Made by a program: the position numbers and the translations under genes | NCBI GenBank assembly: GCA_052168235.1 | Contig: JBQLZK010000007.1 | Coordinates: 97,833-161,832, forward strand | Origin: Thainema sp. | Lineage (GTDB): Bacteria; Cyanobacteriota; Cyanobacteriia; Phormidesmidales; Phormidesmidaceae | DNA length: 64,000 nucleotides | Reading direction: 5' to 3' | The notes under the pieces: model-generated | Told to the model about the DNA's origin: nothing | The model's input: only the letters and a program-made list of their open reading frames with translations | Database searches by the model: none | In this document: in pieces, positions 7,703 to 64,000 of the stretch | How positions within the stretch are numbered: the first letter of the stretch is position 1 | Layout of the letters: each line of letters opens with the position of its first letter

Positions 7703-9625
7703 TTAAGAATCTGTACGGCGAATATAGCCCTGATCGTCAATCACCAAAGGCGTTTGTGGAAAATCGCTTTGAGTTAGTGTCCGGACTAGATTGACGGTTT
7801 GGAAATAATCATCCAAATAGGGAATACCGCTGTCGTCAAGTGCGATAGGAATAATCCGACCCATTTGGAAATCACCTTGTTTGTCAAGCTGGAACTGCAA
7901 GATCATTGAGTTGCCTAACGTACCCACGGTAGACAACGTGCGATAGCCCATAAAATTACCCAGCGAATAGGCAATCAGCTTGCCCTGATAGAGTTCCATT
8001 GCGCGGGGAACGTGGGGGCCATGTCCTAGTACGACATCGGCTCCGGCATCGATCATGGCGCGGGCAAACTGGACAGAATTACCGCGATTTTCAGAATAAA
8101 AATATTCGGTTTCGTTGCGAGTGTAAATGGCATCGGTTCCCTCTGCCCCTGCATGCACCGAGATCACCACGATATCAGCATTTTCAGACGCTTCCTTGAC
8201 TAATGCTTGACCCGCAGCAATGTCATGCATTGAGTTGTGATCGTCCAAGTAGCTAAACGCGATGTAGGCCGTTTTGATACCTTTGACGTCTTGATAGACG
8301 ATTTGGTCTTTGCGACCCACAGCTTTCATCCCAGACTTTTCAATGTTTTCAATCGTGTCGTTAAATCCCTCTTCGTAGAAATCCATTGAGTGATTATTGG
8401 CCACACTCAGTACATCAAAGCCTGCAGCCTTAAGAATTCCAGCGTAGTGAGGCGGCGTCCGGAAAGCGAACGTCATGCCCTGGCTGACATCTTTGGCGCT
8501 ACTTGGATAGTCGGTTAGAGTACTTTCAAAATTGCCAAATACGATATCGGCCTCAGCCAGATAAGGCTGCACATTGGCAAACAGCATCCCTAAATCACTG
8601 GGCAAGCGAGTGTGAGGAAAGTTAGTGCCTGGAATAATGTCTCCCACGGCTTTGAACACAATCGTATCGGCGGCAATTGGATTAGCAGCAGCATCAGAAC
8701 TGGCATCTTCAGCCGGAGCAGCGGCACTCGGTTGAGTCTCTGGCGAGGCAGCAGATTGAGCAGCAGCTTCTGCTTTCGGCTCTGTGTCTGATGCAGCCGG
8801 AGTTGAATTCGTGTCTGACTGATCAGACTCCATTGCAGGATCGCTTGTCGTGTTATCAGCCGGATCTGCTGCTGGGTTGCTAGTGGGAGCAGCGGGTACA
8901 CCAGAACTGCTGCCGAAATAGGGCAGGTCTTTGTTCAAAAGCGTTTCGTCCTCCTTCAGCGAAGGTGGAGGAGCGGGTTCGAGAGTCTCAATTGGGGTTG
9001 GTTCATCATTCCCATTGGCTGACGCTCCGCTTTCAACCTGCACGTCTTCAGCAACGGGTTGAGCAGCATTATTGAGCTGTGTCCGCAACATCACACTCAA
9101 GCCTGTTCCCAAAACGAAACTGGCCGCAATTAAGCCTAAAATGCCGTAGCGCCAGACTTTTCGCTGCGATGGACGGCGAGAACGGCTGGGCGATTTTGGG
9201 GCTGACTGTTTGAGTGTTGCTCGTGGCGGGGCAACTGGAACAGGTACAACTGGGGCGGGCTGAGCATCTAATAGAATCTCCTCTTGCCAGTCTGGTTGCT
9301 CATCACCAGCCCGATGGCCGTAAATCTGCACCACACGAATGTTCGGTAGCCCCAAACAGAGCAGAACTGCACGGGTGGTATGGACATGTAGGGTTCGTTC
9401 TGGAACGTGACTAGACTCTAGATGAATATGCAGCCGATCGCCCTGTTTGGAGACAGTTGCCCAAACCTGCTCTAGGACAAAGGCTTGGTTGAGTATAGAG
9501 GCGATGGCCTGGGTGTTTCCCTGTCTGGCTTGAGCCAGAACCTGTTGCTGATCCGCTATCACTGCGCTCACACCATAAAATTTTTTCGCCTCTAATATTG
9601 GCGCTGACTCAGCAATTTGAGTCAT
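7703..9625 (-). CDS. CapA/PGA_cap family metallophosphoesterase with a TM anchor and a low-complexity linker
   Basis: AVGDI, GNFES, VANNHSMD, VHAGAE, GHGPHV and YSLGNF motifs; likely ATG at 9625. Confidence 0.85.
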   Translation of the reverse strand: MTQIAESAPILEAKKFYGVSAVIADQQQVLAQARQGNTQAIASILNQAFVLEQVWATVSKQGDRLHIHLESSHVPERTLHVHTTRAVLLCLGLPNIRVVQIYGHRAGDEQPDWQEEILLDAQPAPVVPVPVAPPRATLKQSAPKSPSRSRRPSQRKVWRYGILGLIAASFVLGTGLSVMLRTQLNNAAQPVAEDVQVESGASANGNDEPTPIETLEPAPPPSLKEDETLLNKDLPYFGSSSGVPAAPTSNPAADPADNTTSDPAMESDQSDTNSTPAASDTEPKAEAAAQSAASPETQPSAAAPAEDASSDAAANPIAADTIVFKAVGDIIPGTNFPHTRLPSDLGMLFANVQPYLAEADIVFGNFESTLTDYPSSAKDVSQGMTFAFRTPPHYAGILKAAGFDVLSVANNHSMDFYEEGFNDTIENIEKSGMKAVGRKDQIVYQDVKGIKTAYIAFSYLDDHNSMHDIAAGQALVKEASENADIVVISVHAGAEGTDAIYTRNETEYFYSENRGNSVQFARAMIDAGADVVLGHGPHVPRAMELYQGKLIAYSLGNFMGYRTLSTVGTLGNSMILQFQLDKQGDFQMGRIIPIALDDSGIPYLDDYFQTVNLVRTLTQSDFPQTPLVIDDQGYIRRTDS

Positions 9626-9772
9626 ACAAAATGTTAATAAAAACCATTTGCATCGGTGCAGTAAGCGGGTGAAACATGCTGATTCAGGTGCGATCGCACC
9701 TACACTCCCACCCACCGACTCAATATCAACAAGCCATGAAGTTGTGAACTAACGCAGCTTTTTCGCTGCTCG

Positions 9773-11098
9773 TCAAAGTAGAGCTGCCGATCGCTCAGCC
9801 AGTTTTGACCGCTCGCCTTTCAACAGCGTGACATGTCCCGCGAGCGGATCATCCTTAAAACGCTCAATCACGTAGGTCAACCCATTACTCGCCGCATCGA
9901 CGTAGGGATTGTCAATTTGATCGACATCGCCCGTTAGCACGATCTTGGTGCCTTCGCCTGCACGGGTCAGAATCGTCTTCACCTCATGGGGCGTCAGGTT
10001 TTGCGCTTCGTCAATGACAAAGAACTGACGCGGGATCGTGCGGCCTCGAATATAAGTCAGCGGCTCGATTTGCAGCAGACCATGTTCAATCAGTTCTTCG
10101 TGTCCCCGTCGCCAGTGAGCCGGTTTACCAGTTGTATCCTGAGTGCCAAGAATCAAATCAAAGTTATCGTACAGTGGCTGCATCCAAGGCGTCAGCTTTT
10201 CAGAGACATCCCCTGGTAAATAGCCGAGATCCCGCCCCATCGGCATAACCGGACGAGCAATCAACAGCCGACTATAGACATGCTCATCCGCCACTTTACT
10301 CAGTCCAGCTGCGATCGCAAGTAGCGTTTTCCCCGTACCGGCCTTCCCCACCAGCGTCACCAGCGGAATTGAATCCTGCAGCAACAGTTCTAGCGCAAAC
10401 TTTTGTTCCCGGTTGCGGGCGCGAATGCCCGACACCCCAATTGTTGGTAGTTTCAACAGCGGAACAGCTTGTTGAATCGTGCCATCAAACACCGCCAGTG
10501 CTGTGTGAGATGGATTACTCGTGTCAATCAGCGTTAACAACTGGTTGGCATAGAAGCGATTGGGGAGCTCAACCTGTCCGTCTTGATAGAACTGGGTAAT
10601 CACACTAGTTTCAACCCAAACTTCATCAATGCCTGTATAAAGCCCCTCAACATCCACCTTATCGGTTTCATAGTCTTCGGCATTTAGTCCCAAGGCATCG
10701 GCTTTGATCCGTAGATTGGTGTCTTTACTCACCAGCACAACCCGGTTATGACACTGCCGCTTCAGTTCCAGCGCTACCGCTAAGATCGAATTATCGGCCT
10801 GATCACCTTCCAGCTCCGGCGGTAGAGTCGCTAACGTCTCCCGGTGACACAGTGCGACGCGCAGTGTCCCGCCATTGCTCAAGGTAATCCCGTCAATCAA
10901 ATGTCCTTGTTGGCGCAATTCGTCTAGCATACGCGACGTCTGACGTGCATTCCGCCCTGTCATTTCAGACTGCTTCTTGAAGCGATCCAGCTCTTCAATG
11001 ATGGTAATTGGCAGCACCACATCATTATCTTCAAACCCCAAGAGTGCTTCTGGAGCATGCAACAACACATTTGTATCGAGGACAAAGACCTTTTTCAT
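9773..11098 (-). CDS. PIN-PhoH (PhoH2-type) protein
   Basis: N-terminal PIN domain (VLDTNVLL, EELD, ADNSIL, SKDTNLRIKA); Walker A GKAGTGKT; IRGRT, DEAQN and GD..QID. Confidence 0.92.
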   Translation of the reverse strand: MKKVFVLDTNVLLHAPEALLGFEDNDVVLPITIIEELDRFKKQSEMTGRNARQTSRMLDELRQQGHLIDGITLSNGGTLRVALCHRETLATLPPELEGDQADNSILAVALELKRQCHNRVVLVSKDTNLRIKADALGLNAEDYETDKVDVEGLYTGIDEVWVETSVITQFYQDGQVELPNRFYANQLLTLIDTSNPSHTALAVFDGTIQQAVPLLKLPTIGVSGIRARNREQKFALELLLQDSIPLVTLVGKAGTGKTLLAIAAGLSKVADEHVYSRLLIARPVMPMGRDLGYLPGDVSEKLTPWMQPLYDNFDLILGTQDTTGKPAHWRRGHEELIEHGLLQIEPLTYIRGRTIPRQFFVIDEAQNLTPHEVKTILTRAGEGTKIVLTGDVDQIDNPYVDAASNGLTYVIERFKDDPLAGHVTLLKGERSKLAERSAALL

Positions 11099-11200
11099 TA
11101 CGTACGCTAACTAGATTGGCTGATCTCTATATTTTGGCATCAAAACCGAAGAGGTTATTTGACTACCGTTACAAGCTGATTTCTATCTTGGCAGACCAAT

Positions 11201-11245
11201 AAAAAACCTGCTGGCTAGCACAAAAAATGTGAACTAACAAGCAGG
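11201..11245 (-). terminator. Intrinsic terminator-like hairpin between the SH3 gene and PIN-PhoH
   Basis: Minus strand CCTGCTTGTTAGTTCACA...TGTGCTAGCCAGCAGG followed by T6. Confidence 0.55.
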
Positions 11246-11438
11246 CTACGGTGTGCAGTGTTTTCCAGCAGTCGCAAACCGGATGGATAGTCCGCTCTAC
11301 GCTCTGGATAATGTCGGATGGATATTGAGATTGTGTGGATGAACGAACCAGTGGGATGAATCTAGTCGCAAATCTGGTGTGTGTGGGGTGCTAAAGCACC
11401 GTCCAGATTTAGCGCGACCAGATCCAAACTTTTGAAAT

Positions 11439-11762
11439 CTAGTGCAGAAATTCAACGTGATCGGCAGCTACCCAGCCTCGGGCTGCGCCCGAGGAAATAT
11501 AGTACCAATGCGAAACACTGTCATGGACAGTCACATGCGTCCCCGCACTGTACTGGCCGACTGTATCCGCATCAGAATCGGGTGCCGCATAGACATAGAT
11601 GTGAGAACCACCTACTAACTTGGCGGCCCGACCGTCATGGTGGGGCTTGTAATGCCCTGGAGCATCTGCACGAACCGCTGGCACGATTTCATTCATGACA
11701 GCAGTCGTTGCCACAAATCCGGTTGCAGCAACTGCCATCAAAGCAAAGAACTTTTTGTTCAT
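11439..11762 (-). CDS. Small secreted protein with a bacterial SH3-like domain
   Basis: Signal peptide; IYVYAAPD...VG....G..V.V......WYYI.....GWVAA pattern. Confidence 0.7.
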   Translation of the reverse strand: MNKKFFALMAVAATGFVATTAVMNEIVPAVRADAPGHYKPHHDGRAAKLVGGSHIYVYAAPDSDADTVGQYSAGTHVTVHDSVSHWYYISSGAARGWVAADHVEFLH

Positions 11763-12692
11763 GCCTGTATCCTCATCAGATGGTTAGATGCAGTCAGTTC
11801 TATGCCTGAAAATTGGCATTTAAAGTCATTCAGAATCGAACTAAAAATCTGTCACTCCTCACACCAATTTCTGGCAGACAAAACTGACCACTGCAATTAA
11901 GCAGCATCGAAATTTAGCGGAGACGATACTTTTAAGCATTTATTTGAACGGATAATTATTCAGTATGCTGAGTATGCCGTTGCACACCAATATGATGCAG
12001 CAGTGGCCGAGCTGGATGGATGTTTAGCTCATGCTGCTGCTAATCCATATACATCGCTAAAGCAACTCTTTTCAATCTAGCTACAATCAAGATGTACCTC
12101 ATTCAAAGTGCTCAACAGCAACTCCAAATGGATATTCCGGCTGTAGCCTGAGCTGCCTAGATCAGCTTTAATCAAGTATTTTTTGCTCACGAAAAAGAGC
12201 AGACTCAAATAACTTAAATTGCCAGCAGCTTGCTCACTGAAATAGGACTGAGATCGGGAAATTCCAATCGCTTAAATACCAATAGCAGAGAAGAGCTGCA
12301 AGGAGCACCTAGTGGTCTACAAATTTTGGTTTTGCTTCAATCGCTCAATCAAACCGATTGCTATGCACAGGGACATCACGTCCAAATATTGCTTTATGAC
12401 TTAAATGCTAAAAATGCTGCCGAGGAGGAGGACAGCGCTGCGATCGCACATAATAGCGAAGAATAAACATAGGTAAACCTCAAACGTTAGCTAATGAACA
12501 AACGCTTCATTCCCGCGATGTCATGCTCTATGGAGGACCTTGGAAACCACAGAACAATATGCTGGGAATAAAGTACCTGTCAGTGTATCTCAATATTCTC
12601 TGCACGGAACACTAATTTTCGATATTTTTGAAAAGATATGTGATGCATTTATGCCTTGCATCAAAATTTAAGTACGACGCTAATTTCAGCAC

Positions 12693-13661
12693 ATGACCCA
12701 ATGGATGCGAACTCGAATAGCCCAACTGATTATTCAAACCGGACTGCATTGGCAACAAGATAACTGTTTAGAGATGGGTGCTGCGATCGCATATTACGCC
12801 TTATTCTCGCTGTTTCCCTTAATCCTGATTATTCTCAGCGTAGTCGGTTTCTTCGTTGGCCCCAACCAGTATGCTTCCGATCAGATTCTGCTGTTTGCAC
12901 AAGCGGCACTGCCCCCAGAAGCCTACGATTTGGTAGCAGAAAACCTGACCCAGATGAACGAAAACAGCGTCACTGCTGGGATTATCAGCTTTGGATTGTT
13001 GTTAGTGACAGCCAGCGGCTTTTTCAGTGCACTGACCCTGGCCTTCGATCGCATTTGGCGCGTCAACCATTTTGCAGACGAAGAGAATAACTGGAGACGC
13101 GCCGTATTCACGTTTCTCAAACGACGCGTATTTGCGTTTGCGCTGGTGCTCAGTGCTGCACTGCTGCTCTTGGCTTCGCTCCTGTCTGAGCTATTTATCA
13201 ATGTTTTAATTGAGGTGCTGAAAGTCTTTAGCGATCAAGTTCAGTTTGTGCAGCTTGATGATGTGGTGCTGTTGCGATCGCTTAACTTTGCCTCAGCATT
13301 TTTGATTTTGACGGTGGTGATGGCGCTGCTGTTTAAGTTTTTGCCTTCAACCCGCGTCCACTGGGGCGATGTTTGGCTGGGGGCGCTAATTACGACCGTG
13401 CTGTTTATGATTCTGCAGCAGCTCATCAGCAACAGTATCGTCAGCATCGGCAGCCGCTTCCAGTCCTATGGCGTGGCGGGTAGCGTCATGGTGCTGCTGC
13501 TGTGGATTTATCTTACCAGTCAAATTTTCTTTTTGGGCGGTGAATTCACCTACGCCTATGCCTTAATTTACGGCAGTCGTCGCCGCACAGACGAGGAACT
13601 AGCCGAACTAGCCGATCAGAGTGAGCAAGAAAGAGCACGTGGGCGCACCAAATCGTTCTGA
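12693..13661 (+). CDS. YihY/virulence factor BrkB family membrane protein
   Basis: MGAAIAYYALFSLFP and YG.AGS.MVLLLWIY..SQIFFLGGE motifs. Confidence 0.9.
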   Translation: MTQWMRTRIAQLIIQTGLHWQQDNCLEMGAAIAYYALFSLFPLILIILSVVGFFVGPNQYASDQILLFAQAALPPEAYDLVAENLTQMNENSVTAGIISFGLLLVTASGFFSALTLAFDRIWRVNHFADEENNWRRAVFTFLKRRVFAFALVLSAALLLLASLLSELFINVLIEVLKVFSDQVQFVQLDDVVLLRSLNFASAFLILTVVMALLFKFLPSTRVHWGDVWLGALITTVLFMILQQLISNSIVSIGSRFQSYGVAGSVMVLLLWIYLTSQIFFLGGEFTYAYALIYGSRRRTDEELAELADQSEQERARGRTKSF

Positions 13662-59950: not shown

Positions 59951-61180
59951 CTAGGTCTGGGATTGGCGGCAAATGCCAAATACTGAGGTGTAACCATGCA
60001 GGAACGTTGTGCCTTCAACGGGGCCGATTTCACCATTGCAGAAAAAGCCACTGAGAGCTGTTGGACCAATGTAGCGATGGAACAGCTGCGAATCAAAGTT
60101 GGGAGCTTCATAGAGCTGTTCACCCCGTCCCATACAGGCAAACATTAAGGCACCCGCAGGCTGAGTGGCAGCATGATTTTGGGTGTATCGCTCAAGCAGC
60201 AGAGCCAAATCTTCCGCTGAGGTTTTTGCATCTCGGAGGTGGAACTGGATGCGCTGCCCAGACCGAATGCGATCGCCAATTGCGATCGCGCCTGCTCGTG
60301 GATCAACCCCCAATAAATTACGAATCAAAAAGTCGCCTTGTTCCAGATTGCGCTTGAAGCTGCTTTGAGCCACGCCAATAAAGAGGGAATTTTGGGCCAG
60401 TGCCCGATCCTCTTCACTCAGTGTCTGAAAGAGTTCTTGCAGCACTTCCAGCGGTGAACGGAGTTGATCGGGATGGTCGGGATCTTCTAATTCCAACAGC
60501 ACATTGCGCTCACCTTTCGCCACCCGATAGGGCTGACCAATGGGACGACAGCCCTGCGCCACAATCGTATCTAGCACCAGATTTCCCGACAGCGCTACCC
60601 CAATCGTCCCTGATTTGTAATAGGTTTGACCGCAAAACAAACCACTGTCCCCCACCATATCCGTACTGGCCAGCCCTCCCACTTTGACAGAACCGGGATA
60701 GGCAAAATCGAGTCCCTGTAGCAAATTACTAATGCCGGACGACATCGGTGCGCCCAACAGAATGAACTGAGGCTGGGATGCAGGCGATACTCCAACCTGA
60801 TCAATCCACGCATCTGGGGGAGAATCTAAATCAGGCAAATTATCTTCGGCAATATGAAACGTCTGCACATCCACCTCTGGCATAGAGGCTAGACAAAGGC
60901 TGAGGGCTGGATTCGTTTCCACCTCTTGAGTTTGACCCGAACAGTCTCTACCAATGATGCCGCCACCGCTGCAGCCAATCAGGACGGGCAGATCGAGCTG
61001 CTCTTGTAACAGCGGCATCAGCCGAGAATATTCACTCGCAAATGCCGTCGAGATAAAAACCAGACCAAAATTTGCTGGTGCCGATAATGCTTGCTGCGTT
61101 CGTTCCACGACTTCCAACACAGCAGCTTCTAGAGACGGACGAGTTGAAAGGGCATTGGCCCACTGCATAGAATCCGGCAC
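59951..61180 (-). CDS. FIST N/C domain protein
   Basis: GCSGGG, GGLAS, QGCRPIG, FHLRD, F.C.GRG and GFFCNGEIGP...LHGYT. Confidence 0.9.
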   Translation of the reverse strand: MPDSMQWANALSTRPSLEAAVLEVVERTQQALSAPANFGLVFISTAFASEYSRLMPLLQEQLDLPVLIGCSGGGIIGRDCSGQTQEVETNPALSLCLASMPEVDVQTFHIAEDNLPDLDSPPDAWIDQVGVSPASQPQFILLGAPMSSGISNLLQGLDFAYPGSVKVGGLASTDMVGDSGLFCGQTYYKSGTIGVALSGNLVLDTIVAQGCRPIGQPYRVAKGERNVLLELEDPDHPDQLRSPLEVLQELFQTLSEEDRALAQNSLFIGVAQSSFKRNLEQGDFLIRNLLGVDPRAGAIAIGDRIRSGQRIQFHLRDAKTSAEDLALLLERYTQNHAATQPAGALMFACMGRGEQLYEAPNFDSQLFHRYIGPTALSGFFCNGEIGPVEGTTFLHGYTSVFGICRQSQT

Positions 61181-61253
61181 GGTGCCACCTTTGGATCAAT
61201 TACGGTCTATCTCTTCAGTCGTGCCTCCCTCGACTGATTTTGTCATTAGTTTA

Positions 61254-61305
61254 GAATAAGGCATTCCGTAGTGAAGCGGTAGCGGAACGGAGGGATGCCT
61301 TATTC
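61254..61305. other. Hairpin containing the predicted recombination site ATAAGGCA-TT-CCGTA (61256-61270)
   Basis: Perfect 11-bp arms GAATAAGGCAT / ATGCCTTATTC; the site matches both guide segments of the upstream non-coding RNA. Confidence 0.65.
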
Positions 61306-61317
61306 GCGCGCGCGAAA

Positions 61318-61350
61318 ATCCCCCCACCAGCGCGGGGCCAGCGGGGGGAT
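61318..61350 (-). terminator. GC-rich hairpin downstream of the IS110 gene, terminator-like
   Basis: Minus strand ATCCCCCC...GGGGGGAT followed by a short T run. Confidence 0.45.
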
Positions 61351-61376
61351 GATGCTTGAATTATTGAAACTCTGTT

Positions 61377-62582
61377 CTAGCAGAACTGAATCGAAAGGGC
61401 TTTGAACAAATCTCGACTAACGCGAGATGCGGTCATCATAACTCGCTTGTTGCCAGGCAGCTTCTTGTCGAGCTGGCGATAGTAGGCGCGATGCGCTGCT
61501 AAATATTTTTGGTCGGTTAATCGGCTCGACTGAACAACTACCAGCACTTTGACGTGTTGCCATAGGGCAGTACGAGCATAGGACGCGCCGCCAGCAGTCC
61601 ACTCGGATTTATTGCCGCTCTGACTCTGAACCATACCCATACCGAGCGAGAGTTTAAAGGCAGCTTCAGAGCGACGGCGCTTGGTCTTCTTGTTTTTACG
61701 GCGCGAGCTGTCACTATATACATACTCAACTATCGGTTTTCCATCGCTGCCAAGGAACTTCTCAAAGGGAAATATTCGGCTCAGGAGCACGGCCCGGATC
61801 TTTGGGCTAAAACCAAAGTCGTCGAACACCTCTTGGTAGAGACGAAAGCGATCGGCGTTGAGCATCTCGTCAATTACCAGCTCTTGGCGGTACATCTGGC
61901 GATGAAGGTCGCACACCTGGGAGGCGAGCCATGTTGTTGCATCACTCAGACCTGTACCGATAGATTCGCTTAACTTTTGCGATCGCACTTTTTGACCGCG
62001 GACATCTTCACCTGCAATGAAGCGCCAGAGGTTCGGCGGATCAGGGTAGAGATACCAGCGAGGATTCTGGGGTTTTCTGCCGCTAGCGGTTCGGCAAACT
62101 TCAGGCCATTCGGTTGCCAGCTGCGCCCAGAGCCGATTCGTTGTGCTGGTACAAAGTCGAGATAGGCTGTGACGGCTCAACAGCATCTCCCGCAAGTCTT
62201 CAGCATACAGATCGATGAATGCTGACTCATCACTGAAGTTTTCGAGGGTATAGGCTGCGATGCAAACTGGATCGTAGCGGTCTGACTTGTTGTTGAGTCC
62301 TTTATATCCGCGATACTTGCCAATTCGGTGAGTTGGAATAAGCCTGACGATTTTGTTAGCGCCGCGCAACTGGTCGATCCACGGCCTTGAGTAACGGCCT
62401 GTTGGTTCCAGCGCATAGCAATCGGCATCGAGTGAGAGTAAATAGTCAATCCCAGATCTATCGATCTGGATAGATTCGGTTTTATGCCGCTGGGCAAAGC
62501 GCTTCAAATCATTGGGCACTTCATCTAGCAGACACATGGAAACGGACGTTTTACCAACGTCTAAACCACAAATTACAGTCAT
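61377..62582 (-). CDS. IS110-family (Piv/MooV-type) DEDD recombinase / bridge recombinase
   Basis: RuvC-like DEDD residues GLDVGK, ALEPTG and KSDRYD; helical region; C-terminal Tnp domain LGM....QSG with the candidate catalytic Ser, then G....RTALW. Confidence 0.88.
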   Translation of the reverse strand: MTVICGLDVGKTSVSMCLLDEVPNDLKRFAQRHKTESIQIDRSGIDYLLSLDADCYALEPTGRYSRPWIDQLRGANKIVRLIPTHRIGKYRGYKGLNNKSDRYDPVCIAAYTLENFSDESAFIDLYAEDLREMLLSRHSLSRLCTSTTNRLWAQLATEWPEVCRTASGRKPQNPRWYLYPDPPNLWRFIAGEDVRGQKVRSQKLSESIGTGLSDATTWLASQVCDLHRQMYRQELVIDEMLNADRFRLYQEVFDDFGFSPKIRAVLLSRIFPFEKFLGSDGKPIVEYVYSDSSRRKNKKTKRRRSEAAFKLSLGMGMVQSQSGNKSEWTAGGASYARTALWQHVKVLVVVQSSRLTDQKYLAAHRAYYRQLDKKLPGNKRVMMTASRVSRDLFKALSIQFC

Positions 62583-62842
62583 AATGTTCTCTAGCTCAGT
62601 ACTGCATTCTCGTTAAACCCGTCATCAATTGCAGGTCATCACCCCTTTAGAACCCGATCGCTAGAGAGTAGAGGCGCGATCCAGGCCGGATGTCAAACAA
62701 AACCCTTTTAGATACGGGGCGCGATTCAGGCCGCGTGTTCCGTAAACCTAAATAGGTCAATGCCTTATCAAGCCCGAATCGCGGTGTGATGGCTTTGGAC
62801 ACCACCACAGCGAGCGCGCGAAAGCGCTCGGTGTGAGGGTGG
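62583..62842 (-). ncRNA. Predicted bridge-RNA-like guide RNA in the upstream non-coding region
   Basis: Several stems with G-U pairs on the minus strand; a 12-bp stem closes an internal loop with segments AUAAGGCAUU and UACGGAA around a short hairpin, matching 61256-61270. Confidence 0.7.
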
Positions 62843-63100
62843 TTAGCGCTGCTGCTGAGCGATTTTATGGGCGTGGGTGATGAATTGGAGCGTGACGTGC
62901 TCAAGCTGTTCTGGCTGCAAAGTGCGATAGACATCTCCAGCGTCTTTTATAAGAAATTGGTGGACATCAACCTCACTTTGTTCAGTCAACATTGCGATCT
63001 CCACCGCGGCACTTTCTAGGGCTATGACGTAATGCGCAACAGCTTCTAGGAAGCAGGGGTTTAGAACGGAGATACCGGGGAATCTGGGGGAGTCTGTCAT
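62843..63100 (-). CDS. Small hypothetical protein of the phage-like cluster
   Basis: ATG overlaps the upstream stop (TAATG coupling at 63098-63102). Confidence 0.55.
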   Translation of the reverse strand: MTDSPRFPGISVLNPCFLEAVAHYVIALESAAVEIAMLTEQSEVDVHQFLIKDAGDVYRTLQPEQLEHVTLQFITHAHKIAQQQR

Positions 63101-63348
63101 TAGTTGTTGTCCTGTCGGTTCAAACGTTTAACATGCATTTCAGCGGCTGTTAGAGAGCAATGTGCATCCCATTCGTCGGCTTTGGCCTTGTTCTTGATGG
63201 CGTCGATTGCCAGGAGCGCAGATTCGCCAGTGATGGAACATTTACCAGCGCCGGGATAGTAAAGGTCTATCCACATTGCCTCCTCGTCCCATTCGGCATA
63301 GGCGATCTGATCGATGTTGTATGCGTTGCATCCAGTTTCTATGAGCAT
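63100..63348 (-). CDS. Small hypothetical protein of the phage-like cluster
   Basis: Start overlaps the upstream ORF; resembles short phage proteins (YNIDQIAYAEW). Confidence 0.55.
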   Translation of the reverse strand: MLIETGCNAYNIDQIAYAEWDEEAMWIDLYYPGAGKCSITGESALLAIDAIKNKAKADEWDAHCSLTAAEMHVKRLNRQDNN

Positions 63349-63569
63349 TTTTGCTGTGCCTCTCTCATGAGTTCAACGGGGTCAATGAAGACGACTTCAT
63401 ATTCATGTCTGCTGCTAGCTGAGATGCTGATTAGGCCGCGCACGTAGATTTCAGCGTGAGAGCGGAATTTGAAGGCGGCGACGCAATGGGGATGACCGAT
63501 GCAGGGACGGTGATAGACGCGATATTGGAAGCGGGAAACGATATGATTGGCGGTAACTTTGGAAGTCAT
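63339..63569 (-). CDS. Small hypothetical protein of the phage-like cluster
   Basis: AAAGGAG RBS upstream of the ATG; overlaps the next ORF. Confidence 0.55.
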   Translation of the reverse strand: MTSKVTANHIVSRFQYRVYHRPCIGHPHCVAAFKFRSHAEIYVRGLISISASSRHEYEVVFIDPVELMREAQQKCS

Positions 63570-63659
63570 TGGTTATCTACTCCTTTCTAGAATTTTCAAG
63601 TGGGCTTATTTCTCCACAGTGCGATCGCGGGGGTCTTGCGATCGCACTTTTTTCATGAG

Positions 63660-63932
63660 TCAATCTGGTTGCCGAAGCTGGCTAGAATCCCAAGGTTTTT
63701 TTAAGCCGATTTCGCTGAAAGCCTCATCCACGAGATAAAACCGACCATCCTGATCCAAGTCTTCTACCAGGTCGGTTCCCTCACGGATCGCTGTTTGTTG
63801 CAATTGAGTTAGAGGCTTATTCACCTCAATCGCGTATCTAGCAGTCATGCAGCGCAAAGCAGAACGCAGCACGGCAACGGCAAATACAGCGTTCTTATAG
63901 TCTTCCTCGGTAATTTCAATCTCTATTTCCAT
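63660..63932 (-). CDS. Small acidic hypothetical protein of the phage-like cluster
   Basis: 90-aa ORF with ATG start, co-oriented with the other cluster ORFs. Confidence 0.5.
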   Translation of the reverse strand: MEIEIEITEEDYKNAVFAVAVLRSALRCMTARYAIEVNKPLTQLQQTAIREGTDLVEDLDQDGRFYLVDEAFSEIGLKKPWDSSQLRQPD

Positions 63933-64000
63933 AAGCTCGCTCTGGGGTAGTGGTGCGTCAACAAATAGATGACGGCCAGCTAAAGTAAGAAAAACGCTTC

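Follow-up and report, generated by a model that had tools for sequence, protein, structure and literature searches.

The window, a 64,000-nt stretch of DNA from the cyanobacterium Thainema sp., ends in a compact cluster in which four short open reading frames (ORFs), a structured non-coding region and a recombinase gene all lie on the minus strand. The recombinase gene (61377..62582), encoding a 401-aa protein of the IS110-family DEDD/serine type, is 196 nt from a host FIST gene (59951..61180). A 260-nt non-coding region (62583..62842) separates it from a small-gene operon made of a 76-aa ORF (63339..63569), an 82-aa ORF (63100..63348) and an 85-aa ORF (62843..63100), in which the first pair overlaps by 10 nt and the second by 1 nt. 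The upstream region of the operon (63570..63663) contains a hairpin made from two GCGATCGC palindromes (63618-63648); beyond this palindromic hairpin and 90 nt away from the other three lies a 90-aa ORF (63660..63932), whose frame stays open to the window end at 64000 and whose protein-database version has 112 aa. The coordinates thus confirm the order given by the first-pass annotation, namely four co-oriented short ORFs, three of them overlapping, followed by a structured non-coding region and a recombinase; as it also stated, no further tyrosine or serine recombinase occurs at this edge in the relevant part of the window. Past the recombinase stop, a G+C-rich hairpin followed by a U run (61316..61349, minus strand) can be read from the sequence and is likely the terminator of the recombinase gene. 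Compensatory changes preserve its stem in the related locus L001, and a simple terminator scan did not list it among its hits. There is no step in GC content at the element-host junction and no tRNA near it, and within the 64-kb window both the recombinase and the 2.8-kb region occur just once.

Six related loci from other genomes (L001-L006) were set against the window. The three overlapping ORFs are genuine genes, with a dN/dS against the L001 copies of 0.16-0.20, similar to that of the recombinase (0.15). Identity to the L001 proteins amounts to 87% for the 76-aa, 90% for the 82-aa and 61% for the 85-aa product. None of the small ORFs belongs to a family in Pfam, PHROG, PADLOC or NCBIfam. 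The 82-aa protein is found in just 4 representative clusters among 1.84 billion; in the Protein Atlas, the 76-aa ORF reaches only 0.89 with viral hypothetical proteins, a score under the useful range, and the 85-aa ORF has no match. A resemblance of the 76- and 85-aa ORFs to ORFs of L002, suggested by eye, fails on comparison (E about 4). The 90-aa ORF is an orphan: a protein-database search returned only itself, and no ORF of L001-L004 is similar to it. Absent from L001, it is presumed to be further cargo of a larger element.

The recombinase matches Pfam DEDD_Tnp_IS110 (PF01548, E 3.2e-11) and, with 324 bits, clears the 180-bit cut-off of the full-length model NF051857 of NCBIfam ('IS110 family transposase'). 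Its RuvC-like part aligns to the IS621 structure 8wt6 (E 1.5e-11) with the D, E, D, D residues kept, and its profile also aligns to ISCro4 9t56. E59, D101, D104, S322 and G323 are invariant across 27 sequences, among which the first acidic residue of the DEDD set is D or E. The C-terminal Tnp domain (PF02371) scores 18.1 bits, under its 21.3 cut-off, and S322-G323 is a candidate serine site. Relatives are scarce, with 31 in 5.8 billion proteins and most clusters on 1-4 contigs; the genome scan for relatives was based on a 5-sequence alignment. A compact IS110 insertion sequence measures 1-1.6 kb and is usually present in several copies per genome. Here, the common unit is at least 2.4 kb, and the recombinase occurs once in the window and once in each relative locus.

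The common unit is defined by L001, in which positions 8920..11334 correspond to window positions 63663..61249 at 81% identity over 2424 nt. Homology runs uninterrupted through the three small ORFs, the non-coding RNA (ncRNA) and the recombinase; it stops at 61249 on the outer side and, sharply, at 63663 on the left, inside the GCGATCGC hairpin. The flanks are unlike on both sides, with FIST in the window facing SpoIID in L001 and unrelated ORFs upstream. In the window and in 4/4 chromosomal relatives, the next gene past the recombinase is an ordinary chromosomal one, lying within about 320 nt of the stop codon or overlapping it: FIST in the window, SpoIID in L001, a sigma factor in L002, a hydrolase in L003 and glgA in L004. 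Moreover, wherever a relative has enough flanking sequence, the pair of recombinase and guide RNA closes off a larger element; the L005 sequence is too short for its edge position to be judged. Upstream cargo genes are common to relatives whose recombinases are just 30-48% identical. For instance, proteins of 718/855 aa and 273/278 aa are 44-45% identical between L001 and L003, whose recombinases share 44%, and a protein with the motif 'YYR..WG..HIPGG' is encoded on the opposite strand in L001, L002, L003, L004 and L006. Such co-divergence of cargo and recombinase argues against a recently inserted insertion sequence. The more distant relatives lack the three small ORFs, yet their recombinase still sits at the island edge, accompanied by other shared cargo genes; in one relative, a type I restriction-modification system is found as cargo.

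These comparisons bear directly on the simplest account of the locus, an ordinary 1.6-kb IS110 copy that happens to lie next to unrelated small genes. The NCBIfam label and the size of the recombinase with its flanking non-coding DNA, about 1.6 kb and usual for IS110, would suit such a copy, which is nevertheless already contradicted and very improbable: homology to L001 is unbroken across the three small genes, the 64-kb window holds no second copy, the linkage is kept in all relatives, and no loop side of the RNA finds a match at the upstream edge of the non-coding region. The view that this is not a stand-alone insertion sequence, put forward from the window sequence at the outset, is thus borne out by a 2.4-kb block that recurs in a different context and by the larger islands of the relatives.

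Folding of the 260-nt non-coding region beats 200/200 shuffles (z -4.0). RNAalifold applied to the window and L001, two sequences only, gives 69 pairs, 6 of them changed on both sides and thus compensated; in this two-sequence consensus, two stems each close an internal loop with a distal hairpin. The resulting bridge-RNA-like ncRNA spans 62588..62783 on the minus strand. Stem P1 (62771-62783 with 62675-62687) closes the first loop, whose 5' side is 62759-62770 and 3' side 62688-62700, and stem P2 (62661-62667 with 62588-62594) closes the second, with sides at 62638-62651 (5') and 62601-62615 (3'). The segments of the ncRNA that vary between the window and L001 are its four unpaired loop sides. 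A segment of the first loop's distal stem that resembles the element end is base-paired in the consensus fold and was dropped as a guide. A search of the region against Rfam was negative.

Just 5' of the ncRNA lies a conserved hairpin, P0 (62800..62841, minus strand), with 1 compensatory pair. Its position is the site of a hammerhead ribozyme in five more distant relatives (L002-L006), and the hammerhead core motifs CUGANGA and GAAA are absent in the window and L001. A strict hammerhead descriptor matches L004 and L005, its 2 hits in 290,596 bases; minimum-energy folds show a three-way junction in L003-L006 and, for L002, a long stem III. By Rfam, the L005 hammerhead scores just 23 bits. A 9-nt match of the L002 RNA to the element end falls within the stem III insertion of the hammerhead and is probably due to chance. 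A literature search found no paper joining a bridge guide RNA with a self-cleaving ribozyme.

The loops of the ncRNA connect it to the element end. The match of the loop 1 5' side and that of the loop 2 3' side overlap at a TT dinucleotide, 61264..61265, 84 nt from the FIST start codon. This overlap agrees with the site and TT core predicted upstream of FIST in the first-pass annotation. The loop 1 5' side matches the junction at 10/10 positions, core included, in the window, L001 and L003, and the sequence differs in each. Between the window and L001, the match has 3 differing positions, all compensated. The loop 2 3' side pairs, as judged by eye, with the core and the element end over 9 nt with one bulge, adding one more compensated position. 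Such RNA-junction covariation fits the earlier proposal of RNA-guided recombination. In L002, no clear matches between junction and RNA loops were seen.

The junction is embedded in a terminal palindrome (61254..61305), with an outer arm at 61254-61269, a loop and an inner arm at 61287-61305. Each arm holds a 9-10 nt guide-matching sequence, in inverted copies, and in the window, L001 and L003 both arms vary in step with the RNA guide, a three-way covariation. The outer 15 nt of the L001-shared block (61249..61263), with the guide-matched stretch at 61256-61263, may represent a target-derived left half (LT). These supposedly host-side 15 nt are identical at 12/15 positions between the window and L001, with 7 of these nucleotides outside guide reach; they are also part of the palindrome, the inner arm of which belongs to the element. 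The crossover, placed by the guide matches at 61264-61265, may therefore lie further out, by up to 15 nt. Placing the junction within the inner arm, or to the left of the palindrome, was rejected, because host DNA would need to covary with element RNA. A common host repeat was likewise rejected as the target, the palindrome being found once only in the 64-kb window.

L001 offers a candidate for the far end of its element. At its right junction, the loop 1 5' and loop 2 3' sides form an 11-nt composite match, a length reached by 221/20000 shuffles. At L001 580-593, within the 301 nt that separate the last host gene from the first gene of the island, the loop 2 5' and loop 1 3' sides form a 14-nt composite, reached by 31/20000 shuffles. 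The remaining loop-side combinations at either place give nothing, or a 10-nt match at best. This crosswise mapping of the four loop sides to two junctions is the pattern expected of an integrated element, which would here measure about 10.7 kb, with its ends predicted at L001 584-585 and 11318-11319, between a DUF1565 and a SpoIID gene. Another relative, P0003, is located on a 10,737-nt contig, a length near this estimate. Across the whole 21-kb locus on both strands, a composite as long arises in 29/500 shuffles, and single 11-12-nt matches to the RNA number 3 in 19 kb; the case for the distal junction comes from this one locus and a partly post-hoc test. An initial composite-site statistic was too lax, with 104/300 shuffles passing, and was discarded. 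No empty-site counterpart of the L001 insertion point is present in the 64-kb window.

The position of this distal site matters for a second account, in which a self-moving 2.4-kb IS110 element (61249..63663) with three passenger genes lies beside or inside unrelated islands. The sharp limit at 63663, with unrelated ORFs past it in both genomes, would be natural for such an element, and IS110 elements of 2-10 kb with cargo are known from Hu et al. (bioRxiv 10.64898/2026.08.14.744561). We nevertheless regard it as unlikely. No loop side matches at the 63663 boundary or its L001 counterpart, and the loop 2 5' and loop 1 3' sides find no partner elsewhere in the window; the matching L001 site is 10.7 kb away. 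Distant relatives without the three ORFs keep the edge recombinase and other shared cargo. Furthermore, the limit falls within the GCGATCGC-palindrome hairpin, which would be a plausible point of mosaic exchange.

The islands also contain a second recombinase. A tyrosine recombinase gene of about 190-200 aa, 37-54% identical between loci, recurs in L001 and L002, near the far end, and in L006, about 3 kb upstream of the IS110-type gene. That small enzyme could be what integrates the island, leaving the IS110-type protein and its RNA as passengers or as agents of inversion, resolution or regulation at the palindrome, and its recurrence inside three islands was counted against the island reading developed here. 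The two inverted guide-matching sites of the palindrome would also suit an invertible or self-targeted site. Even so, this assignment seems improbable, as the protein consists of a catalytic domain only, of a size typical of invertases and resolvases such as FimB/FimE and not of integrases. In L002, its C-terminus has diverged at the expected catalytic tyrosine while the IS110-type gene is intact; L004 has no such gene in 10 kb upstream; and the L001 gene lies inside the RNA-predicted junctions. The first-pass annotation had held that an integrase and att sites of the cluster's own would speak against integration by the IS110-type enzyme. Some relatives do carry a second recombinase, the tyrosine enzyme, and att repeats were not found: the best direct repeat joining the two island ends does not exceed the reverse-strand control.

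The account that we favour, and consider reasonably probable, is that the window ends in an integrated mobile island that runs past 64000, with the terminal ncRNA and IS110-type recombinase acting as its integrase and excisionase. The window would then hold the last 2.4-2.75 kb of the island, closed by a terminal module of ncRNA and recombinase transcribed toward the element end. The first loop would recognise the chromosomal target and the second the element's own joined ends, and each junction would therefore be matched by one side per loop after integration. The recombinase would cut and rejoin at the TT core 84 nt upstream of the FIST gene; it would thus serve as integrase/excisionase of an island that moves as one unit, and not as the mover of a 1.6-kb insertion sequence. 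The window copy may match its relatives in size (about 6 kb to over 11 kb). Counting against this island reading, besides the tyrosine recombinase, are a far end of the window copy that lies beyond 64000, the single-locus, partly post-hoc basis of the distal junction, the lack of clear junction matches in L002, the conservation of the supposedly host-side 15 nt, an orientation of the guides that, with respect to the recombinase gene, is reversed from that of IS621, and the finding of no empty site, circular junction or sign of recent movement.

Whether such an island is a phage can be judged from its cargo. The first-pass annotation had called the gene string phage-like, a description that finds no backing among the 13 L001 cargo proteins, in which no virion, packaging or replication family was matched and no capsid, portal, terminase or tail gene was recognised. 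Their PHROG matches are collagen repeats and a weak holin-like hit (E 9e-4), and no phage records were matched. Likewise, no rolling-circle replication protein, Zot/pI ATPase or coat gene was detected among these proteins or the scanned ORFs of L002 and L003. The best-conserved cargo protein, of 273 aa, was considered as a capsid and rejected: neither PDB nor BFVD yields a fold match to its model (pLDDT 82) at E <= 0.001. The restriction-modification cargo of one relative also speaks against the label.

The closest mechanistic parallel is the bridge recombinase and bridge RNA of IS621 and the IS110 group, as portrayed by Durrant et al. 2024 (PMC11208160) and Hiraizumi et al. 2024 (PMC11208158). 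Shared features include the DEDD RuvC-like domain, aligned to the structure, a conserved region around the candidate serine, and an ncRNA that has two internal loops and lies immediately 5' of the gene. The loop guides are alike as well, with 9-10 nt on the 5' side, a shorter stretch on the 3' side and an overlap at a dinucleotide core, and the 3'-side segment also spans the last bases of the other partner, as in the IS621 handshake guides. Unlike IS621, the window recombinase has 401 aa instead of 326 aa and matches the C-terminal domain weakly, is present in a single copy, recognises sites inverted relative to the gene and ends in a palindrome that repeats the guide-matching site. The distance from the RNA to the near end is 1.4 kb; to the other end it exceeds 9 kb in L001, where cargo genes intervene. 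A hammerhead ribozyme precedes the RNA in relatives, and Rfam is blank here.

IS110 elements with cargo, and Neisseria prophages integrated by IS110 enzymes, are precedents already on record. The filamentous Nf (MDA) prophages of Neisseria, about 8 kb long, carry an IS110 transposase gene at one end and integrate at dRS3 repeats (PMC7058167, which cites Kawai et al. 2005); the Neisseria precedent for a Piv/IS110 enzyme invoked by the earlier annotation is in print. In both cases, an IS110-family enzyme sits at the very end of an integrated element of about 8-11 kb, its integrase role here being proposed. Unlike the Nf prophages, the host is a cyanobacterium, the cargo of the relatives has no recognised replication initiator, Zot-like ATPase or coat genes, and the target is no known repeat, with a palindrome that does not recur in the window. 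In the expanded IS110 loci reported by Hu et al., recombinase and guide RNA likewise bound multi-gene cargo, of 2-100 kb, and a 9.2-kb circle is described (bioRxiv 10.64898/2026.08.14.744561). According to that preprint, those loci expanded step by step, chiefly by taking up plasmid DNA and resistance genes, whereas here cargo and recombinase have diverged together and the cargo contains a conserved module of regulatory appearance; the available portion of that text contains no mention of cyanobacteria.

From that perspective, a broader and more tentative proposal is that these loci form a family of islands in cyanobacteria, found on chromosomes and on plasmids, that span about 6 kb to over 11 kb and employ a bridge recombinase as a dedicated integrase. 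The guide RNA would derive from the cargo-operon transcript, with its 5' end freed by a cis hammerhead that decayed to a plain hairpin in the window lineage, and the terminal palindrome would keep a DNA copy of the target guide, so that guide, junction and inner arm would therefore change together. Such a palindrome could be a device for rebuilding a hairpin where the element inserts, or one for controlling or re-setting its targeting.

Bridge recombinases have been studied as minimal insertion sequences and as genome-writing tools. If this lineage has stayed tied to a multi-gene island across cyanobacterial orders, it would show that the system can work as a programmable integrase on natural cargo about 10 kb in size. 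With the guide RNA located behind cargo genes, the adjacent ribozyme of the relatives would offer a natural way to free a guide from a longer transcript. The three-way covariation of the palindrome with the guide suggests a rule of site recognition, and it could bear on how these islands choose or change their targets.

On the minus strand, the final 2.8 kb of the window reads in this order: a 90-aa ORF open up to the window end (63660..63932), a hairpin made from a pair of GCGATCGC palindromes (63618-63648), a set of three overlapping ORFs with lengths of 76, 82 and 85 aa (63569..62843), 260 nt of non-coding DNA and a 401-aa recombinase gene (62582..61377). A FIST-domain gene starts at 61180, 196 nt past the recombinase gene, and the host genes upstream have an ordinary housekeeping look. 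The arrangement described in the first-pass annotation, four co-oriented short ORFs with three of them overlapping, then the non-coding region and recombinase, thus holds on one strand. By its sequence the 401-aa protein is an IS110-family recombinase, matching Pfam DEDD_Tnp_IS110 (E 3.2e-11) and NCBIfam NF051857 (324 bits, cut-off 180). Alignment through a profile of 27 relatives matches the first 150 residues to the structures of IS621 and ISCro4, the acidic residues being retained; the C-terminal domain matches Pfam weakly (18.1 bits versus a cut-off of 21.3) and keeps the invariant Ser-Gly. Purifying selection acts on the three small ORFs (dN/dS 0.16-0.20, compared to 0.15 for the recombinase), which marks them as genes; none of the libraries or searches tried gave them a function.

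The 260-nt non-coding stretch folds better than 200 of 200 shuffles and matched no Rfam family. A consensus fold, built from the copies in the window and in L001 (the locus of a close relative) alone, two sequences in all, begins with a 5' hairpin, P0. It is followed by a stem, P1, closing an internal loop that carries a long distal arm, and by P2, closing a second internal loop that carries a distal hairpin. Between the two copies, 6 of the 69 pairs changed on both sides, and free variation falls precisely on the four loop sides left unpaired. This two-loop plan is the one described for bridge RNAs in the available text of PMC11208160. A 95-aa ORF with an L001 counterpart also runs across the region (62647-62934, minus strand); the best explanation is that the RNA gene is conserved, rather than that the ORF is coding.

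The loops of this RNA match the element-host boundary. The 5' side of loop 1 is identical over 10 nt to plus-strand positions 61256-61265, the outer arm of a terminal palindrome adjoining host DNA. The same loop side matches the junction likewise in L001 and in the more distant locus L003, each with a different sequence; between the window and L001, 3 of the 10 guide positions differ and all three are mirrored in the RNA. By eye, loop 2 can pair through its 3' side over 9 nt with one bulge; the paired segment comprises the final 3 nt of the plus-strand stretch, the proposed TT crossover (61264-61265) and the first element bases, with one further compensated position. In this it resembles the handshake guides of IS621, whose 3'-side guide, according to the available text of PMC11208158, crosses the core into the other partner; unlike in IS621, the sites here are inverted relative to the recombinase gene. 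A match by one side per loop fits an integrated element rather than an unused site.

The palindrome itself occupies the last 50 nt of the element (61254-61305), with equivalents in L001 (11278-11329) and L003 (11259-11342). Its inner arm repeats the guide-matching sequence, and in all three lineages both arms covary with the RNA guide. The L003 palindrome, an inverted repeat that is perfect over 39 bp, terminates exactly at the end of the guide match. The window and L001 also agree at all 7 nt flanking the guide match on its outer side (61249-61255), which would be host DNA if crossover occurred at TT; the crossover may therefore be displaced outward by as much as 15 nt.

All five distant relatives (L002-L006) carry a hammerhead ribozyme with an open stem I immediately 5' of the RNA linked to the recombinase: L002 ~9676-9826, with a ~95-nt insertion in stem III, L003 ~9720-9778, L004 9699-9752, L005 195-248 and L006 ~11755-11808. 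The CUGANGA and GAAA cores are retained and all three stems vary between loci yet remain paired. Rfam missed these ribozymes at its gathering score, reaching only 23 bits, in L005. Cleavage would free the 5' end of the RNA from a longer transcript. The window (62800-62841, minus strand) and L001 have P0 at this position; it lacks the cores, and its outer and inner stems resemble hammerhead stems I and II, so that P0 is possibly a decayed ribozyme. In the text consulted from a full-text search, no link between the hammerhead and IS110 was found.

A stand-alone insertion sequence, the alternative to a larger element, is argued against by copy number, by the block common to L001 and by the islands of relatives. 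No second copy occurs within the 64-kb window. The recombinase family is small: 5.8 billion proteins include 31 members, of which two reach 80-84% identity and the others at most 48%, and most are found on 1-4 contigs; one scan of species-representative genomes gave 5 loci, none of them from the source genome. The L001 recombinase is 84% identical to that of the window, and the two loci align at 81% identity across 2424 nt (63663..61249 versus L001 8920..11334), a block that runs from the three overlapping ORFs through the non-coding region and the recombinase to ~130 nt beyond it. Outside it lie the 90-aa ORF and FIST in the window, and in L001 an unrelated 122-aa ORF on the left and a SpoIID-domain gene on the right.

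An all-against-all comparison of ORFs shows that the relatives share genes upstream of the recombinase, within a larger island in each. L001 and L003 have in common proteins of 718/855 aa (44% identity), 273/278 aa (45%) and 110/117 aa; L003 and L004 additionally have one of 123/125 aa. A protein with the motif YYR..WG..HIPGG is encoded on the opposite strand 2-4 kb upstream in L001-L004, and the far end of the L001 and L002 islands encodes a small tyrosine recombinase. On L006, a plasmid of a Nostocales cyanobacterium whose recombinase is 35% identical, the order tyrosine recombinase, motif protein, helix-turn-helix gene, small ORFs and recombinase repeats the pattern of the other islands. 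There the recombinase stop codon lies only 24 nt from the ParM gene start (13174-13200), too close for a terminal palindrome to fit in between; the module may accordingly belong to the plasmid itself. Host genes flank the islands of L001 (DUF1565 left, SpoIID right, ~10.7 kb apart) and L002 (response regulator and sigma factor, ~6 kb apart); that of L003 extends past the 10 kb of flank examined. Divergence among the cargo proteins is on a par with that among the recombinases, which speaks for a long shared ancestry rather than a recent IS insertion. Host DNA beside the L001 island holds a glutamine riboswitch (13381-13477, minus strand; RF01739, 54.6 bits).

L001 offers a candidate for the far junction. 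With loop sides taken from the consensus fold, a 14-nt composite match to the loop 2 5' side plus the loop 1 3' side lies on the expected strand at 580-593, within the 301-nt gap from the DUF1565 gene to the tyrosine recombinase gene. Shuffles of the gap reached it in 31 of 20000 cases, the other three combinations giving at most 10 nt, and shuffles of the whole 21-kb locus in 29 of 500; single 11-12-nt RNA matches are common. At the L001 near junction only the complementary loop-side pair scores (11 nt, reached by 221/20000 shuffles). Cores at 584-585 and 11318-11319 predict an element of ~10.7 kb with the tyrosine recombinase gene inside. The 80%-identical recombinase of another relative (P0003) is encoded on a 10,737-nt contig, which differs from that length by only a few bases and is possibly an assembled circular form. 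Clear junction sites were not found for the L002 RNA. The window offers no partner for the loop 2 5' and loop 1 3' sides at 63663 or anywhere else, in keeping with a far end that lies past 64000.

The cargo is not demonstrably viral, and the "phage-like" label first given to the gene string is not upheld. Thirteen scanned L001 cargo proteins gave only collagen repeats, from which the "tail fiber" PHROG matches arise, a weak holin-like match and the tyrosine recombinase; no phage records matched. The 273-aa protein (L001 4588-5409) belongs to a family of 445 proteins lacking a Pfam family, whose few members with a source name come from filamentous cyanobacteria; its model (pLDDT 82) had no fold match in PDB or BFVD at E <= 0.001. 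As 445 members far exceed 31 recombinase relatives, most such gene sets must travel with another integrase or none. L004 (1-7219 and 11410-12888) differs, carrying a type I restriction-modification system, Mrr and an XRE regulator; its 497-aa recombinase ORF overlaps the host glgA start by 79 nt. Because the cargo is not demonstrably viral and varies between relatives, the element is called an integrative island with variable cargo, with no narrower class assigned.

The earlier proposal of an RNA-guided integrase mobilizing a larger element stands in part: near-junction guide covariation and the relatives' islands favor it, whereas relatives also carry a tyrosine recombinase. This small enzyme, a catalytic domain only (~190-200 aa), accompanies the IS110-type recombinase in three islands: L001 657-1238 (minus), L002 5370-5996 (minus) and L006 8200-8799 (plus). 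The L002 copy, with its diverging C-terminus, looks damaged.

That an IS110 enzyme can serve larger cargo is already known in principle. According to the available text of the sources, Neisseria Nf prophages of ~8 kb have an IS110 transposase gene at one end and use dRS3 repeats as integration sites (PMC7058167), and a 2026 preprint describes IS110 loci whose cargo reaches ~100 kb, together with a 9.2-kb circle (bioRxiv 10.64898/2026.08.14.744561). What is new here is the cyanobacterial lineage, the co-diverged island, the embedded RNA, the ribozyme and the palindrome.
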